From the UHGV virus genome UHGV-0208142: a DNA stretch of 42,627 nt; one strand, 5' to 3'. The position numbers were made by a program, and so were the translations under genes. Source of the DNA: a virus. Under the pieces are notes generated by a model. That model searched no databases. It saw only the letters and a list, made by a program, of their open reading frames with translations, and was not told where the DNA came from. Of this stretch, positions 4,777 to 42,580 are shown piece by piece (position 1 is the first letter of the stretch; each line of letters starts with the position of its first letter).

Positions 4777-6039
4777 TCAAATAACTATGCATTGGGGCAT
4801 GGGTGGGGCAAAGTCCGATAATTTCTGGTTCAACAAAGCAATCTGATCGCTGTTACTGTCGGCCATCCAGGCGCCGTAGACATTGAAAACCATTTGGGCG
4901 CTTGTGTGCCCCATCTGGCTCGCAATGAAGCTGGGGTTGGCCCCGGCTGACAGTGACCAGCAGGCATAAGTGTGTCTGGACTGATATGCTTTGCGATGCC
5001 TTAAACCAGCTCGTTTCAGCGCCGCCTCCCATGAGTCACCAATTGAATCAACCTTGTAATGATAACCAACGTTACTGCTTTTTCTGACCAGCTGAGGATT
5101 GAACACAAATGTACAGTCATGAATAGCCGTTCGGCCATACTCCCGTAGTTGTACCTCAATCTGATACTGCTTTCCCAGTCTGGTCATTTCCGCCTGGTTC
5201 CTCAAAGCGTCAATGGCTGGTTTGATCAGATGCACGACCCTGTCGGTGCCGGCTTCGGTTTTTGGTGGAGTGAAATCACCGAGTTTCGTATAATTTCGGC
5301 GTATGGTCATCGTTCCAGCTTTCAGATCTATGTCTTCCCATGCAAGGGAGACCAACTCACCGTGGCGTAATCCTGTGTAAACCGCAACGGACCACAGGTT
5401 TTTCGTTTGCTGATGCGGGCAGGCATCTATGAAACGAATAAATTCGTCACGAGTGAGTGGATCAGGTTCTATCCTGGCCCTTTTAAGCGGCCTGATTCCG
5501 TTAAATGGGTTTTCCCGGATATAACCATTATCAGCGGCAAACTGAAACATGCCCGCCATGGTGGTCATGTAATAGTTTGCTGTCGCCACACTCAAACCGT
5601 TCTTCACCGATCCCGCCGACAACATATCTTTCCTGACATACAACAGATCTTCCCTGTTCACGGATGAAGCAAGCTTGTTTCCACCAATCCTCAGCAGCAT
5701 ATTCCTTACAACCGATTCATATCGGTCCAGAGCATTAGCGCAGATCTCCAGCCGTTTCAGCTCCAGCCATTTTTCAGACAGAAATTTCACGGTGATATCT
5801 TTCTTGCAGATGCCGAAAGTTTTCAGGTTTGGCGAATTGGGGAATTGCGCCGCATAGTCAAAGGTCCCCATGCGGATAGCGAAACAAACTGACGTTCGCA
5901 GTTCCCCGGCCACCTTCCTGTTTTTAGCGGTGTCAGGGACACCGAGATTTTCCCTGACACGCTTACCTTTAAAAATGAACCATATGCGGAGTGATTTTCC
6001 GTGGTTCTCAACGCCCGTTGGGTATGATTCTTTACTCAT
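4777..6039 (-). CDS. int: Tyrosine integrase, phage integrase family with an N-terminal arm-binding domain.
   Basis: 420 aa. The C-terminal catalytic region carries R..HxxR..Y, seen as RHTYACWSL...GHTSAQMVFNVYGAW. The N-terminal IWFIFKGKRVRENLGV resembles an arm-type DNA-binding domain. An excisionase gene lies adjacent. Confidence 0.9.
   Translation of the reverse strand: MSKESYPTGVENHGKSLRIWFIFKGKRVRENLGVPDTAKNRKVAGELRTSVCFAIRMGTFDYAAQFPNSPNLKTFGICKKDITVKFLSEKWLELKRLEICANALDRYESVVRNMLLRIGGNKLASSVNREDLLYVRKDMLSAGSVKNGLSVATANYYMTTMAGMFQFAADNGYIRENPFNGIRPLKRARIEPDPLTRDEFIRFIDACPHQQTKNLWSVAVYTGLRHGELVSLAWEDIDLKAGTMTIRRNYTKLGDFTPPKTEAGTDRVVHLIKPAIDALRNQAEMTRLGKQYQIEVQLREYGRTAIHDCTFVFNPQLVRKSSNVGYHYKVDSIGDSWEAALKRAGLRHRKAYQSRHTYACWSLSAGANPSFIASQMGHTSAQMVFNVYGAWMADSNSDQIALLNQKLSDFAPPMPQCIVI
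4792..4810. repeat. Copy 2 of the 19-bp direct repeat, inside the 3' end of int, where it encodes ...FAPPMPQCIVI; candidate att core.
   Basis: Exact repeat. Phage att cores commonly overlap the int 3' end. Confidence 0.5.
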
Positions 6040-10223: not shown

Positions 10224-10946
10224 TTACCCGTGCTTCCTGTACGTCTGCGGCATGCTGCCGATCACCTTGCCGAACACGAACACCCGATTCATCTCATCTT
10301 TCTCGATCGGTTCCCAAGGGGCATAGCTCTTGTTGTCAGATATAACCAGCAGCTTGTCCTTCATCTTTTGCAGGCGCTTAACATGTGCAGTGTCGTCGTA
10401 CAGGAAGGCGTAAATTCCATCACCGTCAAACTTCCTTACGCTGACGTCGACGAACAACAGATCTCCCGGCTCAATCGTACCTGACATACTGTCGCCGCGG
10501 ACGTTGATAATCCTGATGTTCTCAGCTTTGCGCCCATCAAACATATGGTTAGCCTCAGCTGGCGCATACTCAACTGAACGGAGTATCTCAACGAACTCTT
10601 GGTTTATCACCCCTGGACCAGCGCTGACGGCGATATCCAAGAGGTCAATCCTAAAGATGTCTTTTCGATTGGTTGCCGATCCTGGTTCAATACCATCATC
10701 GTCAGCATCGCCAAGTAGGTAGGATGCAGACGTGCCTATATGGGACGCTAAAGCCTGTAGCGTCCCCCTCCTTGGTATTGACTCCCCATTAAACCATTTG
10801 CTCACGGCCTTCGGTGTCAACTTCATTCTCTTGGCGATCTCAGCCTGGCGACCGTGTGGCATCAATCCAGCTTTATCGCAGGCCAGCGCTAGCCTCAGAG
10901 AAAATTCTTTTCGCGCTCTTTCTTCGTGAACCATATGTTCAATCAT
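10224..10946 (-). CDS. cI: CI-like repressor: N-terminal HTH plus C-terminal S24 LexA-like autopeptidase.
   Basis: 240 aa. HTH segment QAEIAKRMKLTPKAVSKWFNG. The C-terminus carries GDSM (Ser nucleophile) and VKRL (Lys). It is divergent from the cro-like gene. Confidence 0.9.
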   Translation of the reverse strand: MIEHMVHEERARKEFSLRLALACDKAGLMPHGRQAEIAKRMKLTPKAVSKWFNGESIPRRGTLQALASHIGTSASYLLGDADDDGIEPGSATNRKDIFRIDLLDIAVSAGPGVINQEFVEILRSVEYAPAEANHMFDGRKAENIRIINVRGDSMSGTIEPGDLLFVDVSVRKFDGDGIYAFLYDDTAHVKRLQKMKDKLLVISDNKSYAPWEPIEKDEMNRVFVFGKVIGSMPQTYRKHG

Positions 10947-18163: not shown

Positions 18164-18300
18164 GCCGTGACGTTATCGAACGCATCCGCGACCGCTGGCA
18201 AAAGCTCCGCCTCTGCCGGCACCGCGGCACCGTACTGGTTGACTACCGCATACTGAGAAACTTCGTTCGCATCTATCAGACCCTGGGAGAGACAGCATGA
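18160..18300 (+). CDS. Small 46-aa ORF coupled between rusA and Q.
   Basis: ATGA overlaps at both ends. RBS GGAGG. Confidence 0.35.
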
Positions 18301-19106
18301 ACCTCGAATCTATCGCCAAATACTTCGCGCCTAAATCACCAATGCTGAGCGACTCGCCACGGGCTACTGCATCGGATGGCCTAACCGGCACTGACATCAT
18401 GGCCGCTCTTGGGCTGGTAAATGCCAAGTGCGGATTCGGCTTCGACCTCTATCTGGCAAAGATCGGGGTAAGCACACCTGACCGAGCAATGGAGCTACTT
18501 TATGAATCAGCAGAGCGATTATCAATCCGCTTTAACATCGTTTCAGAACTCAGCCAGGACGTTCGCAAAAGAGTTCTCGAAGTTCTGTGCGCTTTTGCAT
18601 ACCAGGATTACACGCGAAGTGCTGCCAGCGTTAGAAAATGCTCTTGCTGCGATGGGACTGGCTTCACAGAGGCTCAAGTGTTCACCAACAAATGCTCATA
18701 TCCGTGGGGTAAACCGCCATATTGGGCAAAGATGTCCCGCGCGGTACGCCCAAGCCACTGGGAGTGTTGGAGCGAAATCCGCGAGGTGGTCAAAGTTAAA
18801 TGCTCCGCCTGTAACGGAAAGGGTGTTATCAGCAATTCGTGTCGCTGCAATGGGAAAGGAAAGGTACTGGATAAAGAGGCCAGCGAGCGCCTTGGGATAC
18901 CGGTAATGAAGGTGTGCGATCGCTGCAGCGGAAAAGGTTATGCTCGCATGAAGTTTTCGACGGTTATGGAAGGGGTAAGGGCCGTTGCTGACATTAAGAA
19001 AACGGTAGCTTATGAGCAGCTGAAGCCGTTCTTCGAGGAGCTGGTATCCGAATGTCACAAACAGGAATCATACGCTGATGTCATTCTCTCCCGGGTGACG
19101 AGATGA
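18297..19106 (+). CDS. Q: Q-like late antiterminator with a zinc-finger.
   Basis: 269 aa with CSCCDGTG...CSACNGKG...CRCNGKG Zn-ribbon motifs. It lies before the pR'/tR' element and the lysis genes. Confidence 0.75.
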   Translation: MNLESIAKYFAPKSPMLSDSPRATASDGLTGTDIMAALGLVNAKCGFGFDLYLAKIGVSTPDRAMELLYESAERLSIRFNIVSELSQDVRKRVLEVLCAFAYQDYTRSAASVRKCSCCDGTGFTEAQVFTNKCSYPWGKPPYWAKMSRAVRPSHWECWSEIREVVKVKCSACNGKGVISNSCRCNGKGKVLDKEASERLGIPVMKVCDRCSGKGYARMKFSTVMEGVRAVADIKKTVAYEQLKPFFEELVSECHKQESYADVILSRVTR

Positions 19107-19262: not shown

Positions 19263-19337
19263 GGGTCAGAAGCACAGCGGTTGTGCGTTCGGCTGTTAAC
19301 CGAATGGTCGAAGGTTCGAATCCTTCCTGTCCCGCCA
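19263..19337 (+). tRNA. Phage-encoded tRNA-Asn (anticodon GTT), 75 nt ending in CCA.
   Basis: Manual cloverleaf. D-stem GCAC/GTGC with A14, G15, G18G19. Anticodon stem TTCGG/CCGAA with loop CTGTTAA (U33, GTT, A37). Variable loop TGGTC (C48). T-arm GAAGG-TTCGAAT-CCTTC. Discriminator G plus CCA. Caveats: A at position 8 and one T-T mismatch in the acceptor stem. Confidence 0.6.
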
Positions 19338-23210: not shown

Positions 23211-24680
23211 GTGAGCGAACAAGATAACGGCCTTCAACTGGCTGTGAACAATCTCGCCACTGAAATGCGGCGAGCGAATTACCTTAACGCCATCGGTATC
23301 GGTGGCGGGAACACAAAGCGCCCGACGCTCTATCAGGAGTTTGGCTACCCGCGAACCATTACCTTCCATGACTTCTACAACATGTACCGGCGCAACGCCG
23401 CAGGCTTCGCAGTGGTGCATCGTCTTCTGGATGGATGCTGGCAGGATTATCCGGTAATCGTTGACGGTGATGAGTCCCAGGAGGCGAAGAAAACTAACCC
23501 GTGGGAAAAGAAAGTCACCAAGTTTATGAAAAAATGGTGGCCGAAGGTGAAGGATGCCGATCGCCGCAATATGGTCGGGCGTTACTCCGCACTGCTGCTG
23601 CAGGTGAAAGATAACAAGCCATGGAGCGATCCAGTAGATACCAGGCTGGTGAAATCCCTGGGCGAGTCAGCGCTGGTAAAACTTATCCCGGTATGGGAGC
23701 CGCAACTGACAGTTGCCGAATGGGATAACGATCGCCAGTCCGAGACGTTCGGCCAGCCGAAGATGTTCAACTTCAACGAGCAGCCGGTTGGAGGCGAGGC
23801 TTTCGTCGGACCCACGCGCGGTGAGCCAGTGCATCCGAGCAGGGTGATCCTGTTCTGCGAAGGCTCAGAGGATGACAACGTTCTGTCGGGTATCCCCCTG
23901 CTTGAGGCCGGATACAACAAAGGACTCGACCTTGAGAAGATTTCCGGCGGTGGCGCTGAGGGCTTCCTGAAAAATGCCAGCCGGCAGATCGCTGTCGAGT
24001 TCAGCAAAGAAACAGACATGGCTACGCTGTCCGATCTGGCGAAGAAGGCTGGTTATGCCGACCTCGGCGAAGCGATGGGCGACAAGGTCAACAAGCTTAA
24101 CCGCGGCACCGATGCGGCGGCGGTTATGCAGGCCGGGCAGATGCACGTCCTCAGCGTAACTCCAGGCGACCCGGGGCCGACTTGGGAGGTTACCGCGAAC
24201 GAGCTGGCAGCGTCAGTGCAAATCCCTTTCACCATTCTGTTTGGACAGCAGACCGGACGACTGGCGAGCGATGAGGATAAAACCGACTGGGCCATTCGCC
24301 GCAATACCCGCCGTAACGGCTTTCTGACTGACCGAATCACAGCCTTGCTGGAACGCTTCTGGACCCTGGGAATTATCGACCCGCCGACAAATGGAGAGGT
24401 CACCATTTCATGGACCGACCTGCTGGCACCTGGCGAGAAAGAGAAAATCGAGAACGCTTCGAAACTGGCTGATATCGTCCAGAAAACGTCGGGCTTCTAT
24501 GGTGGCGAGCCGCCATTCACAGCCAACGAACTACGCGAGATTGTAGGGCTCGACCCTCTGCCTGAACCAAAGCAACCACCTAACCCGAATGACAAGGTGA
24601 CAACCGATGATCCACTGGCCGATGACACCGGAGCAGACGGCAAAGGTGGGGCTGCCGATAGTTCCGCGCAGCAAGGTTGA
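23211..24680 (+). CDS. Portal protein.
   Basis: 489 aa with an acidic C-terminus. Follows terL. Confidence 0.8.
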   Translation: MSEQDNGLQLAVNNLATEMRRANYLNAIGIGGGNTKRPTLYQEFGYPRTITFHDFYNMYRRNAAGFAVVHRLLDGCWQDYPVIVDGDESQEAKKTNPWEKKVTKFMKKWWPKVKDADRRNMVGRYSALLLQVKDNKPWSDPVDTRLVKSLGESALVKLIPVWEPQLTVAEWDNDRQSETFGQPKMFNFNEQPVGGEAFVGPTRGEPVHPSRVILFCEGSEDDNVLSGIPLLEAGYNKGLDLEKISGGGAEGFLKNASRQIAVEFSKETDMATLSDLAKKAGYADLGEAMGDKVNKLNRGTDAAAVMQAGQMHVLSVTPGDPGPTWEVTANELAASVQIPFTILFGQQTGRLASDEDKTDWAIRRNTRRNGFLTDRITALLERFWTLGIIDPPTNGEVTISWTDLLAPGEKEKIENASKLADIVQKTSGFYGGEPPFTANELREIVGLDPLPEPKQPPNPNDKVTTDDPLADDTGADGKGGAADSSAQQG

Positions 24681-25617
24681 CCCGACTCGATCAGCGAAGC
24701 AGGTCAGCGCGATGTTCCGGGATATCGAGGACCGTTATGTCGGCATCAAGCGTGCTCTGAAAGCACTGTTTGACCAGCGCCTGACCGGGAGAGAGCGAGA
24801 GGTTAACAGCCACAACTGGCATTTCCTGTGTCACGTTAACGGTGCAGAGCCAACGCTCTACCAGGTCAACGCTGGCAAGTTCATCTACGACATGTCAGCG
24901 CAGGAACTGGCCGACCTGCTCGAAGCGGTAGAGGTTATTCTCGACGATTACCTGCTGGAAGGCGGCGAACAAAGCCTGTGGGCGATGGATTACGTCGCCG
25001 CTGAGGCGCAGCGCGGAACGCTGGAGGCCTTCAACAACCTCTCGCAGCAGTCGCAGGTGTACGCCAGCCAGACGACGCTTCAGCAGCTTTTAAGCAGCCC
25101 TGCATACCAGAACCAGATCGCCAGTGCCTACATCAGCACGTATAGCGACTGGAAGCTGGAAGCTGACCGGGCGCGCGGTGACCTGGCGAACATCATCGCG
25201 GATGCCGTTGGGCGCGGTGTGAACCCCCGCGAAACGGCGCAGGTGATAAGCAAGCGCCTTGATGTCTCTATGGGCCGCGCAAAGACTATCGCTCAGACTG
25301 AGCAGGTCGGCGCGCTGCGCCAGGCACAATGGAACGAAACGGACTGGGCTGCGGATCGGCTTGGCCTGAATACCGGCCTGCTGTGGCTGTCGGCGCTCAA
25401 ACCGACGACGCGCAGCTGGCACGCCAGCCGTCACGGCAAGGTCTACACCACCGAGCAGGTGCGAAACTTCTACGCCGAGAACGGCAACCGGTACAACTGC
25501 TATTGCAGCCAGATTCCGGTTCTGCTCAATGACGACGGCAGCATTTTCAATCAGGGGTTAGCTGAGAAGCTGGAGAAAGAGCGCAAACAGTGGTCCCCGG
25601 ATAAAAAGGCAGCATAG
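24607..25617 (+). CDS. Head morphogenesis protein (Mu F / SPP1 gp7-like minor head protein). The start is uncertain: the six-frame ORF overlaps the portal gene, and an in-frame ATG at 24712 is an alternative.
   Basis: 336 aa. Carries the WHASRHGKVYTTEQV motif typical of the gp7/F family. Follows the portal gene. Confidence 0.65.
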   Translation: MIHWPMTPEQTAKVGLPIVPRSKVDPTRSAKQVSAMFRDIEDRYVGIKRALKALFDQRLTGREREVNSHNWHFLCHVNGAEPTLYQVNAGKFIYDMSAQELADLLEAVEVILDDYLLEGGEQSLWAMDYVAAEAQRGTLEAFNNLSQQSQVYASQTTLQQLLSSPAYQNQIASAYISTYSDWKLEADRARGDLANIIADAVGRGVNPRETAQVISKRLDVSMGRAKTIAQTEQVGALRQAQWNETDWAADRLGLNTGLLWLSALKPTTRSWHASRHGKVYTTEQVRNFYAENGNRYNCYCSQIPVLLNDDGSIFNQGLAEKLEKERKQWSPDKKAA

Positions 25618-25962
25618 TTATTTTTTGCATGGATATTTAGCATTCAGGTAAATCATGATTATGGAACTAGCCTGTTTATCTCGGATGCCGGGGTTGTTTT
25701 TAAGATATTCACCGACCATGTCGCCGATTTGCCCTCTTGTGATTTTGTCACCAGTGCAAACGGCAAAGCCTTCGAGCGCGTCCCACACGCCTGTTACGTA
25801 GCCCAGATACTCATTTGCATCTATTAAATCTTTTTCGCTTGGCGATGCTTGTTCGGCACGAATTGAGGCTTTGTAGAGATCATAAAGCTCATTTCCAGTT
25901 ATGAAACCAGCCTTGGCTGGGATAGCGACTACAAACACTAAGGCCAAAAACCATTTTTTCAT
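25618..25962 (-). CDS. Reverse-strand moron: secreted 114-aa protein with an N-terminal Sec signal peptide and a C-terminal Cys.
   Basis: MKKWFLALVFVVAIPAKA signal with an AKA-G cleavage site. AT-rich codons. Encoded antisense to the late operon, between the head morphogenesis and scaffold genes. Confidence 0.6.
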   Translation of the reverse strand: MKKWFLALVFVVAIPAKAGFITGNELYDLYKASIRAEQASPSEKDLIDANEYLGYVTGVWDALEGFAVCTGDKITRGQIGDMVGEYLKNNPGIRDKQASSIIMIYLNAKYPCKK

Positions 25963-25985
25963 TTCAATAATCCAAAGGGTTAAAC

Positions 25986-27365
25986 ATGAACCTTACCAGT
26001 ATTCATGTTAAATCCCTCGCCATCAACGCCTCCAACATCTCAACGACAACCATCAACGGCCAGGAGCACTACGTCATTCGTGGTGCGGTTCCGATCGTCG
26101 ATGACATTGTGATGAATGGCGGTCTGTACCCGGCGGAGGAGATTAACAACAGCTACCAGACGATGGAAGGCAAGCTGATGCCTCTCCCGCACCCGATGGT
26201 AGATGGCAAATATGTCAGCGCCAATGACCCGCGGGCCATTAACAGCTATCACGTCGGTGCATGGGCGCAGAACGTCAGTAAGTCAGGCGACCAGGTCGTC
26301 ATGGACGTTTATATCAATAAGGCGGTCGCCGAGACAAAGCCAGACGGTAAGCGCCTGATTAATCGTCTTGATGAGATGATCGCTGGCACCAACACCGACC
26401 CGATCCACCTGTCTACCGGCTTACTCACGAACAAAGAGAGAAAGTCAGGCGAGTCGAAGCAGAAGAAGTACTCATGGATTGCTCGCAATATGCAGTTCGA
26501 CCATATCGCTATCCTGCTCGATGAGCCGGGCGCCGGCACTCCAGAAGAAGGAGTCGGCATGTTCGTGAATGCCGATGGTCAGGAAGGCGAAGTCGAAACT
26601 GCAAGTCTCGTTGATGCGGCAAATAGCCTCAAAGATGGCCTGCTGAACAAAGTTAAGTTCTTCCTCACCCATAACTCAGAAGCCTCCTTCGATGAAATCT
26701 ACCAGATGTTGCGGGAAGCCATTCGCGCGCCGTCAGGCAGCGATGTTTATCGCTATGTCGTGACCGTATGGCCCGACAAATTCATTTTCGAAGAGGGCAA
26801 TAAGCTCTTCCAGCAAAAATACCTCATCGACGACAGCACAGTCACGCTGGTCGGCGATCCAGTAGAGGTCGTGCGCAAACCCACTGAGTACGAAGTCAAA
26901 ACCAACGGAGAAATAAACCCGATGAAAGAGAAGATGATCGCCGCGCTCAATGCCGCAGGCGTTAAAACCGAGGGGCTGACCGACGATCAGGTCTGGGATG
27001 CCTATAACCAGCAGGTTCAGAAGAAAGCAGGTGACCAGCCGGGTACTCATATTAACTCTGACGCGATTACCGCGGCAGTAAATCTGGCGATTAAGCCGCT
27101 GACTGACGAGATCGGTACGCTGAAAACTCAGCTGCAGGCCAACGCTGAAAAAGACCTCAAGACCAAGCGTGAAGCGGTCAAAGCGAAATTCCCGTTCATG
27201 ACCGAAGCGGCGATCAACTCGCTGGCCGGCGAAGCGCTGAACGACATGTATGCACAGTGCCAAACCAGTACCGGTTTGAACCCATCTTTCCAGCAGGTCA
27301 ATGCTGAAAATGACCAGTGGAAAGACTATGACCTCAACGCTGGCATCGATCAGGAGAAAAAATAA
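25986..27365 (+). CDS. Scaffold / prohead protease-like protein (DUF2213-like N-domain plus C-terminal coiled coil).
   Basis: 459 aa. Position between portal/morphogenesis and decoration/capsid genes. Helical C-terminal half. Confidence 0.55.
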
Positions 27366-39257: not shown

Positions 39258-39727
39258 TGCCAACATTACGAGAATGGAAAGAGAGGCGTCCGGCGAGCGA
39301 CATCAAACAGACGGTGGAGTTTTATCATCCTGCGTTTGGTTATTACCGGGTGGTCAATAACCTGTTTCGCCCGGCGACGTTTGGCGGCAACTCATTCGAG
39401 CCTGCGCGGTTCAGCGTAACAGAACCGGCGCAGGACGGAACGGCAGTGATATCCATGACGATTACCTTTGTCGCTGCGACGGAGCATGTCCGGCAGACAC
39501 TGAAAAGCTGGCGCGGGGCGGCGCGTATGACGCCGATTAAGTGCCTGTATCAGCAGTGGAACGCGATCGGTGATGCATCATCCCTGAAAGACTGGACGCT
39601 GTATGTGAGTGACATCTCTGCTGACGCAAACAATGTGACGGTTGACGCCGGGTTCACCAACCCTTTGACGCTAGCCAACCCGATTATTTACACAACAGAA
39701 CTTTATCCAGGACTGAAAACTTCATGA
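39257..39727 (+). CDS. Minor tail protein (L-like position).
   Basis: 156 aa. TAATG coupling. Confidence 0.5.
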   Translation: MPTLREWKERRPASDIKQTVEFYHPAFGYYRVVNNLFRPATFGGNSFEPARFSVTEPAQDGTAVISMTITFVAATEHVRQTLKSWRGAARMTPIKCLYQQWNAIGDASSLKDWTLYVSDISADANNVTVDAGFTNPLTLANPIIYTTELYPGLKTS

Positions 39728-40119
39728 CGCAAGACGAATTTATCCGGCTTGTTACCGGCAAGCCGTGGGCTAACCGCTCCTGCAGTTTTGGCTCGATGGA
39801 TTGTTGGGCGCTGGTTGTTCTGTATTACCGGCATGTGCTGGGAATTGAGTTGCACCATATTCCAGCGTATGAAGCCGGGGCTGACTTCATTACTTGCCAT
39901 GAGCAGGAGGTGGAGCATTGGAGAACGATACCAGCAGCGGTGTCGGGTTGCATTGCGGTTTTCTATCGTGGTGAAGTCCCGGCGCATATTGGCGTAATGA
40001 CAAGCCCCGTTAAGTGCCTGCATTCCCGTGGGGAGTTTGGTTTCGTGCGCAGCGACAACCCGCTGGCGCTTCTTAAAGTATACAGCCGCGTGGAGTATAT
40101 GGTGCATGGTTCGATATGA
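39724..40119 (+). CDS. NlpC/P60-family tail peptidase (gpK-like).
   Basis: 131 aa. Cys (SMDCWALV) and His (HIGVM...H) spacing resembles C40 peptidases. Position matches lambda K. Confidence 0.65.
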   Translation: MTQDEFIRLVTGKPWANRSCSFGSMDCWALVVLYYRHVLGIELHHIPAYEAGADFITCHEQEVEHWRTIPAAVSGCIAVFYRGEVPAHIGVMTSPVKCLHSRGEFGFVRSDNPLALLKVYSRVEYMVHGSI

Positions 40120-42580
40120 ATTACAACGCCTTCCTGGCGCGCCAAAGCATCGTGGAGTTGCGGAGGAAGGAACGCCGCTAGCTGAGTTACTTGATTCTCT
40201 GAATTTGCACAATGATGTGGTAGTTAAGCTTAACGGCAGAGAAATTGATGACAACTTCGAGATAACTTATCCGCTGTGCAGAAATGATGTGGTCCTTATA
40301 TTCGACCAGCCGGAGGGTGGGGTAGGGAAACTGATCAACACCATATTACGACCGGTCACAAAAATTCTCTCTGGCGCAATGAAATTGCTCGGTCTTGCAC
40401 CAAAATCCGGAGGCGTTTCTGTTGCAACTGGTGAGTCGCCAAACAATGATGTCACCCAGCAGACCAACCGGGCCCGTCTATATAAAGGGAGGCCGAATAT
40501 TTATGGTCAAGTACGAGCCTATCCAGACCTAATACAGGAATCGATGTTTGAATACATCAGTAATAATAAAATGGTTACAGAGTGGATGGAGATAGGCTAT
40601 GGACACTACAATATTTCATCAGTACGTTATTCCGAATCTTCTTTGGTAGCTATGGCCGGCGCCAGCTATGAAGTTTATCATCCAGGCACGGTAATCCCAG
40701 AGATTATTCAGGGATATGCCTTTGACGATGTTGATGGGCAGGAGCTTCCTGGCACCAATGAGCAGACGACGGATATTACTAATCAGGCAACAACCAATTC
40801 ACTATTAACTGGTACATTTGCTGGTGGTCAGTTCTACGCGAAAATAGCCAAAGCCAACGATTTTGATGTTTTCTACGACACCCCCAAGCCATTTGCCGTA
40901 ACCGTTACTGTTAACGTTACATATAACACCGCGAGCGGTTCTGTCACAAAAGACATTAATGTTACCGCCAATCTGTTTCAGTCTGAAATTTCAGACGATG
41001 GGGCTCTAATTGATCCACTGGAATACTACGAATTCTGGTTTAGCGGTCTGGGTGGGGCTGATTTTGCAGCTCTGCCCGCAGATGCTGTAGTGAACGACTC
41101 GCTTTTCACCATAACGCAGTACGGCACGATTGCTGTAGGTCCTTTCTTTGCCGCGCTGGAAGGAGACCAGTTGTGGATTCACTTGTACGCAAACGAAAAC
41201 GGTGGGTATGACGGTCCGGCAAGATTAACTTGGTGGCAAGTTGATGAGGACAACAACCAGATCCCGGGTACAGAAGAGAGTATGGATGTGAACGTCCATA
41301 ACGATGGACGCAACCAGGATTACATCTATCGGACCTATAAAATCACTCCAGCAGCCGGGTTCGGGCGTTACGCCTTTAAAGGGGAGAGAACGAATAACAG
41401 CGCCAGCGATTCAGTGCTGTACCTGTCTGGTGCTCACTCTGTTACTGTGCGGCAGAACGTTGTTTATCCTGATGATACAATTGTTCGCGTGACTGTCCGT
41501 CAGACAGAAACACAGACTGTTGCATCAGAACGCAAATACAACTGCCTGGCACAGCGGAAAGTCATTTCTTGGTCGGCGTCCGGCGGCATTGACTACACAT
41601 TGCGGGCCAGTCGGTCATTTGCTGATGCCGTTCTGCATGAGTGGGTAATGACTGGAAAGCAGGACCCTGCGCGGCTGGATTTGCCGTCGCTCTACGCCAT
41701 TAAAGACTCCCTGCCTAATGTGGATCTGGGTTATTTTGACTGGACATTCTCCGACGCAACCCAGCCCCTAGGTGAGCGTATACAGATTATCTGTAACGTA
41801 GCCCGCGTTAGTTTTAACTGGGTCGGTGATGTTCTTACGTTCTGGCGTGATGAAAGGGTTTCTAACCCAGATGCGGTTTTCGCCCGTTCGAATATGTTCT
41901 GGGAAGAATACAAGCTGTCATGGAAAATGTCTTTACCTGGTGGTTACGACGGCGTGGCGCTGGATTACGTCGACCCGCTGACGAACAAGAAGGCTTACAT
42001 CTACCTGCAGATCGACAGCAGCGGCATCACCGAGGTTGAGGACGCCACTGTTAACGCGATGCAGATCAGCCTGGACGGCTGCCGAAACGCCACCCAGGCA
42101 ACCGATCGAGCCTGGCTTGAGGCGAGGAAAATCCTCTACTCACGCCTGACTATGACAGTGAAAGTGCTGGAGTCGACTCAGGTGGTGCGCGGAACGGTGA
42201 TTCAGTGTCCTGACATGTACGACAACGCGCAGCAGACCGGATACATCACCGGGCGCTCCGGTGACGTGTTTTCGACCTCGGAGCGTCTCGACTTCTCACT
42301 CGGTGATATGTGGGTGGTGATGACCGACAGCCTCGGCAATTACCGCGGGCGCTGGCGAGCTTATCCGGTAAGTGGCAAGCCCAAAGCATTTCAGGCTGCA
42401 GCCGATACCTTCGATCTGAACATTTATGACCGCGAAAATGTGCAAAACCCCAGCCGGTATTTCATCGCTACCGACTCGGAACTCAACTCCACAATCTGGC
42501 GCGTCGATAGCGCAAAACCAAACGGTGACGATACTCAAACCCTCTCACTCACTGAGTATTCAGACTCGATTTATCCGTAA
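40106..42580 (+). CDS. Tail tip / host-specificity protein (gpI-like N-terminal region fused to a J-like body).
   Basis: 824 aa from the ATG at 40106. The six-frame ORF 40028..42580 overlaps the peptidase gene. N-terminal ubiquitin-like region ...VVVKLNGREIDDNFEITYPL followed by a large beta-rich body. Confidence 0.65.
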   Translation: MVRYELQRLPGAPKHRGVAEEGTPLAELLDSLNLHNDVVVKLNGREIDDNFEITYPLCRNDVVLIFDQPEGGVGKLINTILRPVTKILSGAMKLLGLAPKSGGVSVATGESPNNDVTQQTNRARLYKGRPNIYGQVRAYPDLIQESMFEYISNNKMVTEWMEIGYGHYNISSVRYSESSLVAMAGASYEVYHPGTVIPEIIQGYAFDDVDGQELPGTNEQTTDITNQATTNSLLTGTFAGGQFYAKIAKANDFDVFYDTPKPFAVTVTVNVTYNTASGSVTKDINVTANLFQSEISDDGALIDPLEYYEFWFSGLGGADFAALPADAVVNDSLFTITQYGTIAVGPFFAALEGDQLWIHLYANENGGYDGPARLTWWQVDEDNNQIPGTEESMDVNVHNDGRNQDYIYRTYKITPAAGFGRYAFKGERTNNSASDSVLYLSGAHSVTVRQNVVYPDDTIVRVTVRQTETQTVASERKYNCLAQRKVISWSASGGIDYTLRASRSFADAVLHEWVMTGKQDPARLDLPSLYAIKDSLPNVDLGYFDWTFSDATQPLGERIQIICNVARVSFNWVGDVLTFWRDERVSNPDAVFARSNMFWEEYKLSWKMSLPGGYDGVALDYVDPLTNKKAYIYLQIDSSGITEVEDATVNAMQISLDGCRNATQATDRAWLEARKILYSRLTMTVKVLESTQVVRGTVIQCPDMYDNAQQTGYITGRSGDVFSTSERLDFSLGDMWVVMTDSLGNYRGRWRAYPVSGKPKAFQAAADTFDLNIYDRENVQNPSRYFIATDSELNSTIWRVDSAKPNGDDTQTLSLTEYSDSIYP

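Follow-up and report, generated by a model that had tools for sequence, protein, structure and literature searches.

A Rap1a/Tai4a-family gene antisense within the head module of a lambdoid temperate phage: a probable orphan immunity gene

Introduction

What might a temperate phage gain from a small gene, encoding a protein apparently destined for export, that runs against the late operon in the midst of its head module? The question is raised by the minus-strand gene at positions 25618–25962 of UHGV-0208142, a lambdoid temperate phage genome of 42,627 nucleotides (nt), hereafter the window, that is, the whole stretch of DNA analysed, whose closest isolated relatives are Klebsiella phages. An earlier note, made from the letters without database searches, had described the gene as a secreted-protein moron and had placed its product among lysogenic-conversion factors such as periplasmic immunity proteins, lysozyme inhibitors or exclusion proteins. 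The gene is genuine, its product of 114 amino acids (aa) is a member of the Rap1a/Tai4a family (PF18602) by sequence and fold, and in the phage it is an orphan member of that family. As judged from its sequence, it probably encodes a Tai4a-type immunity protein that would protect lysogens from Ssp1-like Tae4 amidases delivered by the type VI secretion systems (T6SSs) of competitors. Tae4 amidases are papain-like enzymes that cut the γ-D-Glu–mDAP bond of peptidoglycan (mDAP, meso-diaminopimelic acid).

A genuine gene on the minus strand

The open reading frame (ORF) runs on the minus strand from an ATG (25962–25960) to a TAA (25620–25618), inside a plus-strand head module and antisense to the late operon, as the earlier note had it. 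It is AT-rich, with a G+C content of 0.432 against 0.524 for the whole window, and the G+C content of its third codon positions is 0.435 against 0.75 and 0.65 in the two flanking genes. Its TAA stands directly beside the TAG (25615–25617) of the convergent Mu-F-like head-morphogenesis gene, with 0 nt between the two stops, so that the reported abutment of the two genes is exact. On the other side, a head-module gene of the DUF2213 family diverges from it, with 23 nt from ATG to ATG, and is followed by the head-decoration and major-capsid genes. The divergent start region described earlier is thereby found in place, but the name of scaffold given to this neighbour is unverified: the gene has a Pfam match just above the cut-off and belongs to a PHROG family of unknown function (Table 1).

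Selection has acted on the minus-strand frame. The Nei–Gojobori ratio of nonsynonymous to synonymous substitution rates (dN/dS) has a median of 0.09 over nine distinct close alleles and lies at 0.08–0.09 against alleles that are 68–70% identical. The possibility that the plus strand is the coding one across 25618–25962 was considered and rejected, the largest and sole plus-strand ORF being 48 aa long and the minus frame being under purifying selection. The assembly collection contains the identical protein in 553 blocks. In each of the six contexts examined the gene lies in a Klebsiella-type prophage, in the order Mu-F gene, Rap1a-family gene, DUF2213 gene, and the surrounding terminase, lysis and tail modules are variable, as in mosaic prophages. 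Intact copies of the gene occur in hundreds of assemblies and six genera.

Family and fold of the protein

In a Pfam search at E up to 1, the sole match is PF18602 (Rap1a), which is matched over model positions 1–90 of 90 at 58.2 bits (E = 1.2e-15; curated cut-off 27.7 bits). Among PDB sequences, Agrobacterium Tai4 is retrieved at E = 6.7e-5 and Serratia Rap1a marginally (E = 0.1). The AlphaFold model, based on 35 homologs, is an all-α Rap1a fold of four long helices with a predicted local distance difference test score (pLDDT) of 88.4 overall and >92 in the mature part; residues 1–20 are disordered (pLDDT ~53), and the model is confident from residue 21. Searched against the PDB with Foldseek, it matches Tai4 (6ije/6ijf) and Rap1a (3zfi/4bi8) alone, with probability 1.00, a target-normalised template modelling (TM) score of 0.76–0.81 and a best fold E of 3e-5 (Tai4), the next match having E = 0.58. 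Both the compact helical body and the kinship with Rap1a/Tai4-like T6SS immunity proteins suggested by the earlier note are thus confirmed. Its other suggestion fails: periplasmic lysozyme inhibitors (Ivy, MliC/PliC, PliG) are rejected because a Pfam or fold match would be expected of them and none appeared, either in Pfam or among the Foldseek structures. A conventional Tai4 (Rap2a, or the Tai4 fold of Enterobacter and Salmonella) is rejected as well, PF18602 being the only Pfam match and no such chains being present among the PDB sequence or fold matches.

Automatic annotation agrees with the assignment where it exists. Close relatives, including those of E. coli prophages that share the gene order, are named 'Rap1a/Tai family immunity protein' or 'Rap1a immunity protein domain-containing protein' in RefSeq and UniProt. 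In PHROGs the product is family 3870, annotated as 'unknown function', and the 114-aa protein has no match in NCBIfam or in PADLOC.

Predicted export, disulfide, dimer and blocking helix

The N-terminus reads MKKWFLALVFVVAIPAKA|GF... and, by inspection, has the layout of a Sec signal peptide, consisting of an n-region MKK, a 13-residue hydrophobic core and AKA|G before the predicted cut. This agrees with the earlier note, as does the disorder of residues 1–20 in the model. The n/h/c layout is kept in all alleles and in distant relatives, with a small residue at −3 and Ala at −1. The C-terminus reads ...YPCKK. The protein had been said to end in a Cys, and Cys112 does lie near its end, but as the third-last residue.

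The best-studied family member offers a template for the mature domain. Serratia Rap1a loses a 26-residue signal peptide by cleavage, requires a Cys78–Cys122 disulfide for folding, dimerises through helix α2, forms a 2:2 complex with the amidase Ssp1 and neutralises it by covering the catalytic Cys-His site with a helix and the loop that follows; 'Tai4a'-type immunity designates the partner of the Ssp1-like subgroup of Tae4 toxins (PMC3852654). In the phage protein, Cys69 and Cys112 are invariant in every alignment and align with the Cys of Rap1a and Tai4; they would form a disulfide, the predicted equivalent of Cys78–Cys122. The motif GYVTGVWDA aligns with the dimer residues I63–A71 of Rap1a, and Y55, G58, V59 and D61 are conserved family-wide; these conserved residues and the Rap1a structure suggest homodimerisation through helix α2. 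The Rap1a residues responsible for contacting and blocking Ssp1 have residues 72–85 as their counterparts in the alignment. No other stretch is as well conserved among the phage alleles as the blocking-helix segment ITRGQIGDMVGE, whose rim is variable (residues 72, 73, 85 and 109), and the Ssp1-contacting residues of Rap1a are mostly different in the phage protein, for example Gln84, replaced by Thr75.

A cargo slot with an allelic series

The slot between the Mu-F-like and DUF2213 genes is a cargo site. In close relatives it holds unrelated small genes, mostly co-directional with the head genes, as seen in KO-TP1, Kp4856-1, ST11-VIM1phi8.1, ST101-KPC2phi6.1 and phage 2 LV-2017. In all, loci L099–L178 display more than 15 different cargoes of 66–263 aa, nearly all without a Pfam match, which makes the slot a hotspot within the head module; one of them is an HNH_3 + AP2 endonuclease (L111:1852-2427). 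Among the 80 viral contigs closest by their DUF2213 protein, 24 carry a Rap1a-family gene, antisense in every case.

These genes fall into at least seven allele groups, 33–77% identical, in phages of Klebsiella, Enterobacter, Cronobacter and E. coli, and all seven pass the PF18602 threshold (52–66 bits). Allele A, that of the window, is found in Klebsiella and Raoultella. With identities given to A or to the nearest allele, the series continues with allele B (68–70%; Enterobacter and Lelliottia), allele F (56–59%; viral contig L169), allele C (45%; Cronobacter), allele D (43%; phages whose DUF2213 and Mu-F proteins are, respectively, 96% and 87–90% identical to those of the window), allele G (36%, and 47% to E; E. 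coli) and allele E (about 35%; viral contigs L123 and L153).

The exchange has sharp boundaries. Between the window and the allele-D phage L054, nucleotide identity is 90–96% up to 25607, falls to 50–59% in 25608–26007 and rises to 81–100% beyond. Alleles A, B, D and G all meet the Mu-F gene at an identical stop-to-stop junction. At the other end, the DUF2213 gene starts with ATGAACCTTACCAGTATTCAT (or ...ATCCAT; protein MNLTSIH) in carriers of alleles A, B, D and F, and with GTGAAGCTATCCAGCATCCAC (protein VKLSSIH) in most non-carriers. The moron character proposed at the outset is supported: the relatives hold unrelated cargo in the slot, the base composition departs from that of the flanks, the phage is temperate and the cassette is sharply delimited. 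Since purifying selection within alleles is combined with deep divergence between them and with near-identical flanks, the pattern is that expected of a specificity or immunity locus, and the slot seems to fit one.

An unannotated Rap1a homolog occupies the same slot in Cronobacter phage ENT47670 (NC_019927; L004:3997-4339), where it is frameshifted by an extra T in a run of eight. The frameshift is a sequencing error or marks a pseudogene; the allele is intact (113 aa) in other Cronobacter-type prophage contigs (L045–L053).

Relatives outside the slot and the search for a cognate toxin

The superfamily is large: at 50% identity it comprises 19,525 clusters when matches up to E = 1e-3 are admitted, and 7,212 when the limit is set at 1e-10. 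Tandem double Rap1a domains were seen in proteins of ~230–265 aa (P0063–P0065, P0080 and P0083) of the representative library. Beyond the slot, 36 further viral contigs and phage DSL-LC04 carry relatives that are 28–40% identical, co-directional with early genes (exonuclease, AAA_24/annealing protein, primase, methylase), and one relative is listed in BFVD for Escherichia phage Bp4. In the DSL-LC04 record (OR003939; L003:4001-4327) the relative is called 'type VI amidase'; it is actually a member of the immunity family and not of the amidase one.

The gene is filed as an orphan because adjacency to an effector is the usual context of an immunity gene and not a property of the protein. No Tae4 gene adjoins the phage copies, which have head genes as neighbours in every phage locus examined, and none was found among the 128 neighbours of the environmental phage copies or among the sampled ORFs of the window. 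The closest chromosomal relatives inspected (Serratia, two metagenome contigs, Pseudomonas and Rhizobacter) are all orphans too. In Pseudomonas, Rap1a-family genes (L179, L180, L017, L018, L020, L022 and L023) lie directly upstream of hrp/hrc type III secretion genes, with a sigma-54 activator, a harpin and a needle protein as neighbours and no T6SS or Tae4 gene nearby. The canonical order hcp–Rap1a–Tae4–vgrG is reproduced solely in the Agrobacterium branch (locus L184). In a scan of the genome collection together with protein searches, no close relative of the phage alleles was found paired with an Ssp1-like Tae4 from an enterobacterium, and tblastn against the plasmid collection found no relative. 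Tae4-domain effectors are reported in T6SS loci of Klebsiella and Enterobacter (PMC12469244; PMC12999792). The prototype is Ssp1 of Serratia.

Among phages, toxins of this kind are rare: tblastn with Agrobacterium Tae4 finds a relative in one phage among 50,697 records, the PAAR-Tae4 locus of Burkholderia phage ST79, and a Tae4 pattern scan of 2.9 million viral contigs finds none, both searches being insensitive to distant NlpC/P60 enzymes. In ST79 (NC_021343; L185:1603-3119), the genes beside the tail genes encode a PAAR protein, a Tae4 amidase (PF14113, 103 bits) and a third protein, of 112 aa, that has no Pfam match; the locus resembles a T6SS effector module carried by a phage, with a presumed immunity gene that belongs to neither of the known types. 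In the tail module of the window itself, a 131-aa protein (39724–40119, plus strand) has a near-threshold NlpC/P60 match (22.4 bits, cut-off 23) and is possibly a gpK-type tail protein that cuts the cell wall.

Expression and control region

With spacers of 0 nt and 23 nt, the control region of the gene must overlap a neighbouring head gene. A strict scan for sigma-70 promoters over 25300–26500 finds none. The earlier note had assumed a promoter of the gene's own and pointed to 25963–26010; here too the strict scan is empty, and a weak sigma-70-like candidate, at 26026–25998, emerges by a looser matrix alone. This candidate falls within codons 1–14 of the DUF2213 gene, with the end of its −10 element 35 nt before the ATG of the Rap1a-family gene. 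Sites scoring at least 8.82 bits number 25 in the 85 kb of window strand (~0.3 per kb). The score is equal in alleles A, C and D, and is 6.65 in non-carriers. A weak Shine–Dalgarno-like GGA, read from the sequence upstream of the ATG (Table 1), may act as the ribosome-binding site, and alleles A–D all have GGA, GGGA or AGGA in the corresponding position. As to the different starts of the DUF2213 gene in carriers and non-carriers, the cassette may bring its own control region, overlapping the head gene, or alternatively the recombination joint may simply be located there.

The terminator scan of 25300–26500 detects none after the stop of the Rap1a-family gene; its two terminator-like sites are no more than chance would give and are misplaced to end the gene. 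A terminator-like hairpin with a T run (25678–25694, plus strand) lies inside the ORF; chance would give ~1 such site in the region scanned. Were the hairpin real, late transcription would run into it.

Proposed function and alternative explanations

Both characterised members of the family, Serratia Rap1a and Agrobacterium Tai4, neutralise Tae4 toxins, and a mechanism can be proposed on their model, in which we infer export, dimerisation, target and the timing of expression. Transcription would run against the late operon and hence occur mainly from the repressed prophage, a timing suggested because of the antisense orientation and by analogy with antisense morons such as lambda bor. The pre-protein would be exported by the Sec pathway and its 18-residue signal peptide removed; in the periplasm the Cys69–Cys112 disulfide would form, and the four- to five-helix domain would dimerise via helix α2. 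When the T6SS of a neighbour injects an Ssp1-like Tae4 amidase, each dimer would bind two toxin molecules, the helix around ITRGQIGD plugging the toxin active site as Rap1a does in Ssp1; this step is drawn by homology at ~21% identity. A lysogen would then outlive attacks lethal to non-lysogens, a benefit to host and prophage alike, and the seven divergent alleles at one slot would match different toxin variants.

Several observations weigh against this proposal. The link to Tae4 passes through two characterised relatives of only about 21–22% identity. In a superfamily that is very large and for the most part uncharacterised, targets may vary from branch to branch. No cognate effector lies beside any phage allele, and no Tae4 beside the chromosomal relatives P0028, P0035, P0040 and P0043 or in the Pseudomonas and Rhizobacter loci. 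No convincing promoter was found by the scan of 25300–26500 or with the looser matrix, and no terminator of the gene by that scan. Finally, the early-region relatives in environmental phages and in Bp4 are not explained by pure lysogenic conversion; because of this misfit, a phage-centred role is kept open.

Such a role, which we hold to be unlikely though the strongest of the competitors, would make the protein a periplasmic inhibitor of a papain-like peptidoglycan endopeptidase (NlpC/P60, CHAP or Tae4-like) outside any T6SS. The enzyme could be the wall-cutter of an incoming phage virion, of a tailocin or a bacteriocin, and the gene would be a superinfection-exclusion or anti-bacteriocin factor acting at wall crossing. 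The family scaffold, a steric active-site plug for a papain-like amidase, would suit this purpose; all close relatives are orphans; a benefit to the phage seems more natural for the relatives beside exonuclease, annealing-protein and primase genes and in Bp4; and the window's own tail protein comes close to the NlpC/P60 cut-off. However, the single phage Tae4 relative found is T6SS cargo and not a virion enzyme, PADLOC gives no match, and we know of no Rap1a-family member that acts on a phage enzyme. A bolder and quite improbable version would hold that phage-borne Rap1a proteins in general are not T6SS shields but inhibitors of the papain-like endopeptidases with which other phages and tailocins cross the wall, a new kind of superinfection exclusion. 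It would explain the relatives in the early regions of probably lytic phages, and the many alleles for one slot in a lineage with an NlpC/P60-like tail protein.

Improbable, too, is a Rap1a fold put to a use unrelated to toxins, for example as a periplasmic chaperone or as an envelope-modifying factor affecting phage receptor availability or host virulence. It would accord with a superfamily so huge and so largely uncharacterised, with Pseudomonas relatives fixed beside hrp/hrc type III secretion regulators and not T6SS genes, and with the replacement of most Ssp1-contacting residues. Yet effector binding is, to our knowledge, the only known role of a small, disulfide-bonded, dimeric helical bundle, and allelic divergence between near-identical flanks under purifying selection fits immunity or specificity genes and not housekeeping envelope factors. 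It is very improbable that the gene is a silent passenger, an unexpressed relic without benefit that persists through its position between essential head genes: the want of a strong promoter or terminator and the frameshifted ENT47670 record would agree with this, but dN/dS is ~0.09 within and between alleles, intact copies are widespread and include the ENT47670 allele in other Cronobacter prophages, and the slot's cargo is so readily replaced in related phages that a useless gene would be lost.

Relation to known systems and significance

Compared with Serratia marcescens Rap1a (3ZFI, 4BI8; PMC3852654), the phage protein has the same Pfam family and fold (TM ~0.8), an N-terminal signal (cleaved in Rap1a, predicted here), an equivalent Cys pair, the α2 dimer motif and a similar size (~95-residue mature domain). 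It differs by an identity of only ~21%, by the change of most Ssp1-contacting residues and by its orphan state, the Serratia gene lying beside ssp1 in a T6SS cluster. Tai of Agrobacterium tumefaciens (Atu4346; 6IJE, 6IJF), which confers immunity to a Tae amidase (PMC6277958), is the best PDB match by sequence and fold and shares the two Cys and a periplasmic location (predicted for the phage protein), whereas it is ~22% identical and is encoded within a T6SS locus, hcp-tai-tae-vgrG.

Immunity genes without toxins are themselves a known concept, as are prophage effector–immunity modules. Bacteroidales have acquired interbacterial defence clusters, a kind of gene cluster reportedly described by Ross et al. 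in 2019. Salmonella Typhi has an immunity islet with the Tai4-like t0730 (PMC7400221), and Enterobacter strains retain Tai4 without Tae4 (PMC12999792). Like the phage gene, these genes have no toxin, are horizontally acquired and are presumed to defend against the weapons of others; unlike it, they are borne on chromosomal islets or on conjugative or transposon-like elements, often in arrays. The phage gene is a single gene in the structural module of a functional-looking temperate phage, with many alleles for one slot. Phage-borne T6SS effector–immunity modules are exemplified by the aux clusters of Ralstonia phiRSY1-like prophages (PMC11481896) and by Aux3 of Vibrio cholerae (PMC7721734). 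Together with the ST79 locus, they share with the window phage a phage or prophage-like vehicle for T6SS-related cargo, but they carry a weapon (an effector with VgrG or PAAR) and its immunity gene, and the window phage carries a shield only.

A last comparison is with morons of the lambda bor type, which Barondess and Beckwith, and Juhala et al. in 2000, reportedly described. Bor of lambda is a lipoprotein linked to serum resistance that is expressed by the prophage from its own defined promoter and alters the envelope phenotype of the host. Both bor and the phage Rap1a-family gene encode a small exported protein (here predicted), run against late transcription and deviate in base composition; bor has a defined promoter, whereas the Rap1a-family gene is tightly packed between its neighbours.

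The family assignment itself is already automatic in RefSeq and UniProt. In the literature searched, with subscription journals outside its coverage, no paper was found on immunity-only Rap1a/Tai4a genes in phage head modules or on their allelic series. If the proposed immunity function is true, temperate phages of Klebsiella, Enterobacter, Cronobacter and E. coli would spread ready-made resistance to contact-dependent cell-wall toxins, and lysogeny would shift the outcome of bacterial fights in the gut or hospital environment. Seven alleles in one slot would offer a natural specificity panel for Tai4a-type recognition of Tae4 variants, and prophage content could become a predictor of the T6SS susceptibility of Klebsiella. 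More broadly, phages commonly carry members of a large family (about 19,500 clusters) that is known from two studied proteins and whose role in phages is so far putative.

Features of the phage genome

The temperate character of the phage is apparent from its genes for an integrase, a CI-like S24 repressor, lambda P and Q. Dam, RecT, lysozyme, Rz, terminase, portal, decoration, major capsid and tape-measure proteins are also encoded. The window seems to be a complete phage genome, opened inside the tail region. Coordinates are given in Table 1.

Table 1. Coordinates of the Rap1a-family gene, its parts, its flanks and the genes of lysogeny and late control in the window
Feature	Positions	Strand	Details and basis
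Integrase gene	4777-6039	-	
CI-like repressor gene	10224-10946	-	Helix–turn–helix + S24
Q antiterminator gene	18297-19106		
Left flank, Mu-F-like head-morphogenesis (minor head) gene	24607..25617	+	PHROG 758 at 3.5e-149; Phage_Mu_F in related loci
Exchangeable cassette	25608..26009		ORF, 23-nt spacer, first 8 DUF2213 codons
Rap1a/Tai4a-family gene	25618..25962	-	114 codons + TAA; ORF, Pfam PF18602, dN/dS, AlphaFold, Foldseek
Mature domain, predicted periplasmic	25621..25908	-	Residues 19-114; Cys69, Cys112, α2 motif GYVTGVWDA, helix ITRGQIGDMVGE
Predicted Sec signal peptide	25909..25962	-	Codons 1-18 (MKKWFLALVFVVAIPAKA), cut after Ala18; by inspection
Weak Shine–Dalgarno-like GGA	25971..25973	-	8-10 nt before ATG; read from sequence
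Right flank, DUF2213-family head-module gene	25986..27365	+	PHROG 760 at 6.7e-183; Pfam DUF2213 23 bits (cut-off 22)
Candidate sigma-70-like promoter	25998..26026	-	TTGATG-17 nt-AATACT; 8.82 bits, approximate own matrix

An Rfam scan of the whole window found nothing besides one tRNA, a phage-borne tRNA-Asn (GTT) at 19263–19337 on the plus strand, immediately 3′ of the Q antiterminator gene. Two long plus-strand ORFs, at 4–2895 and 40028–42580 (963 and 850 aa), have no Pfam match and, judged by their position, probably encode tail-tip or host-recognition proteins.

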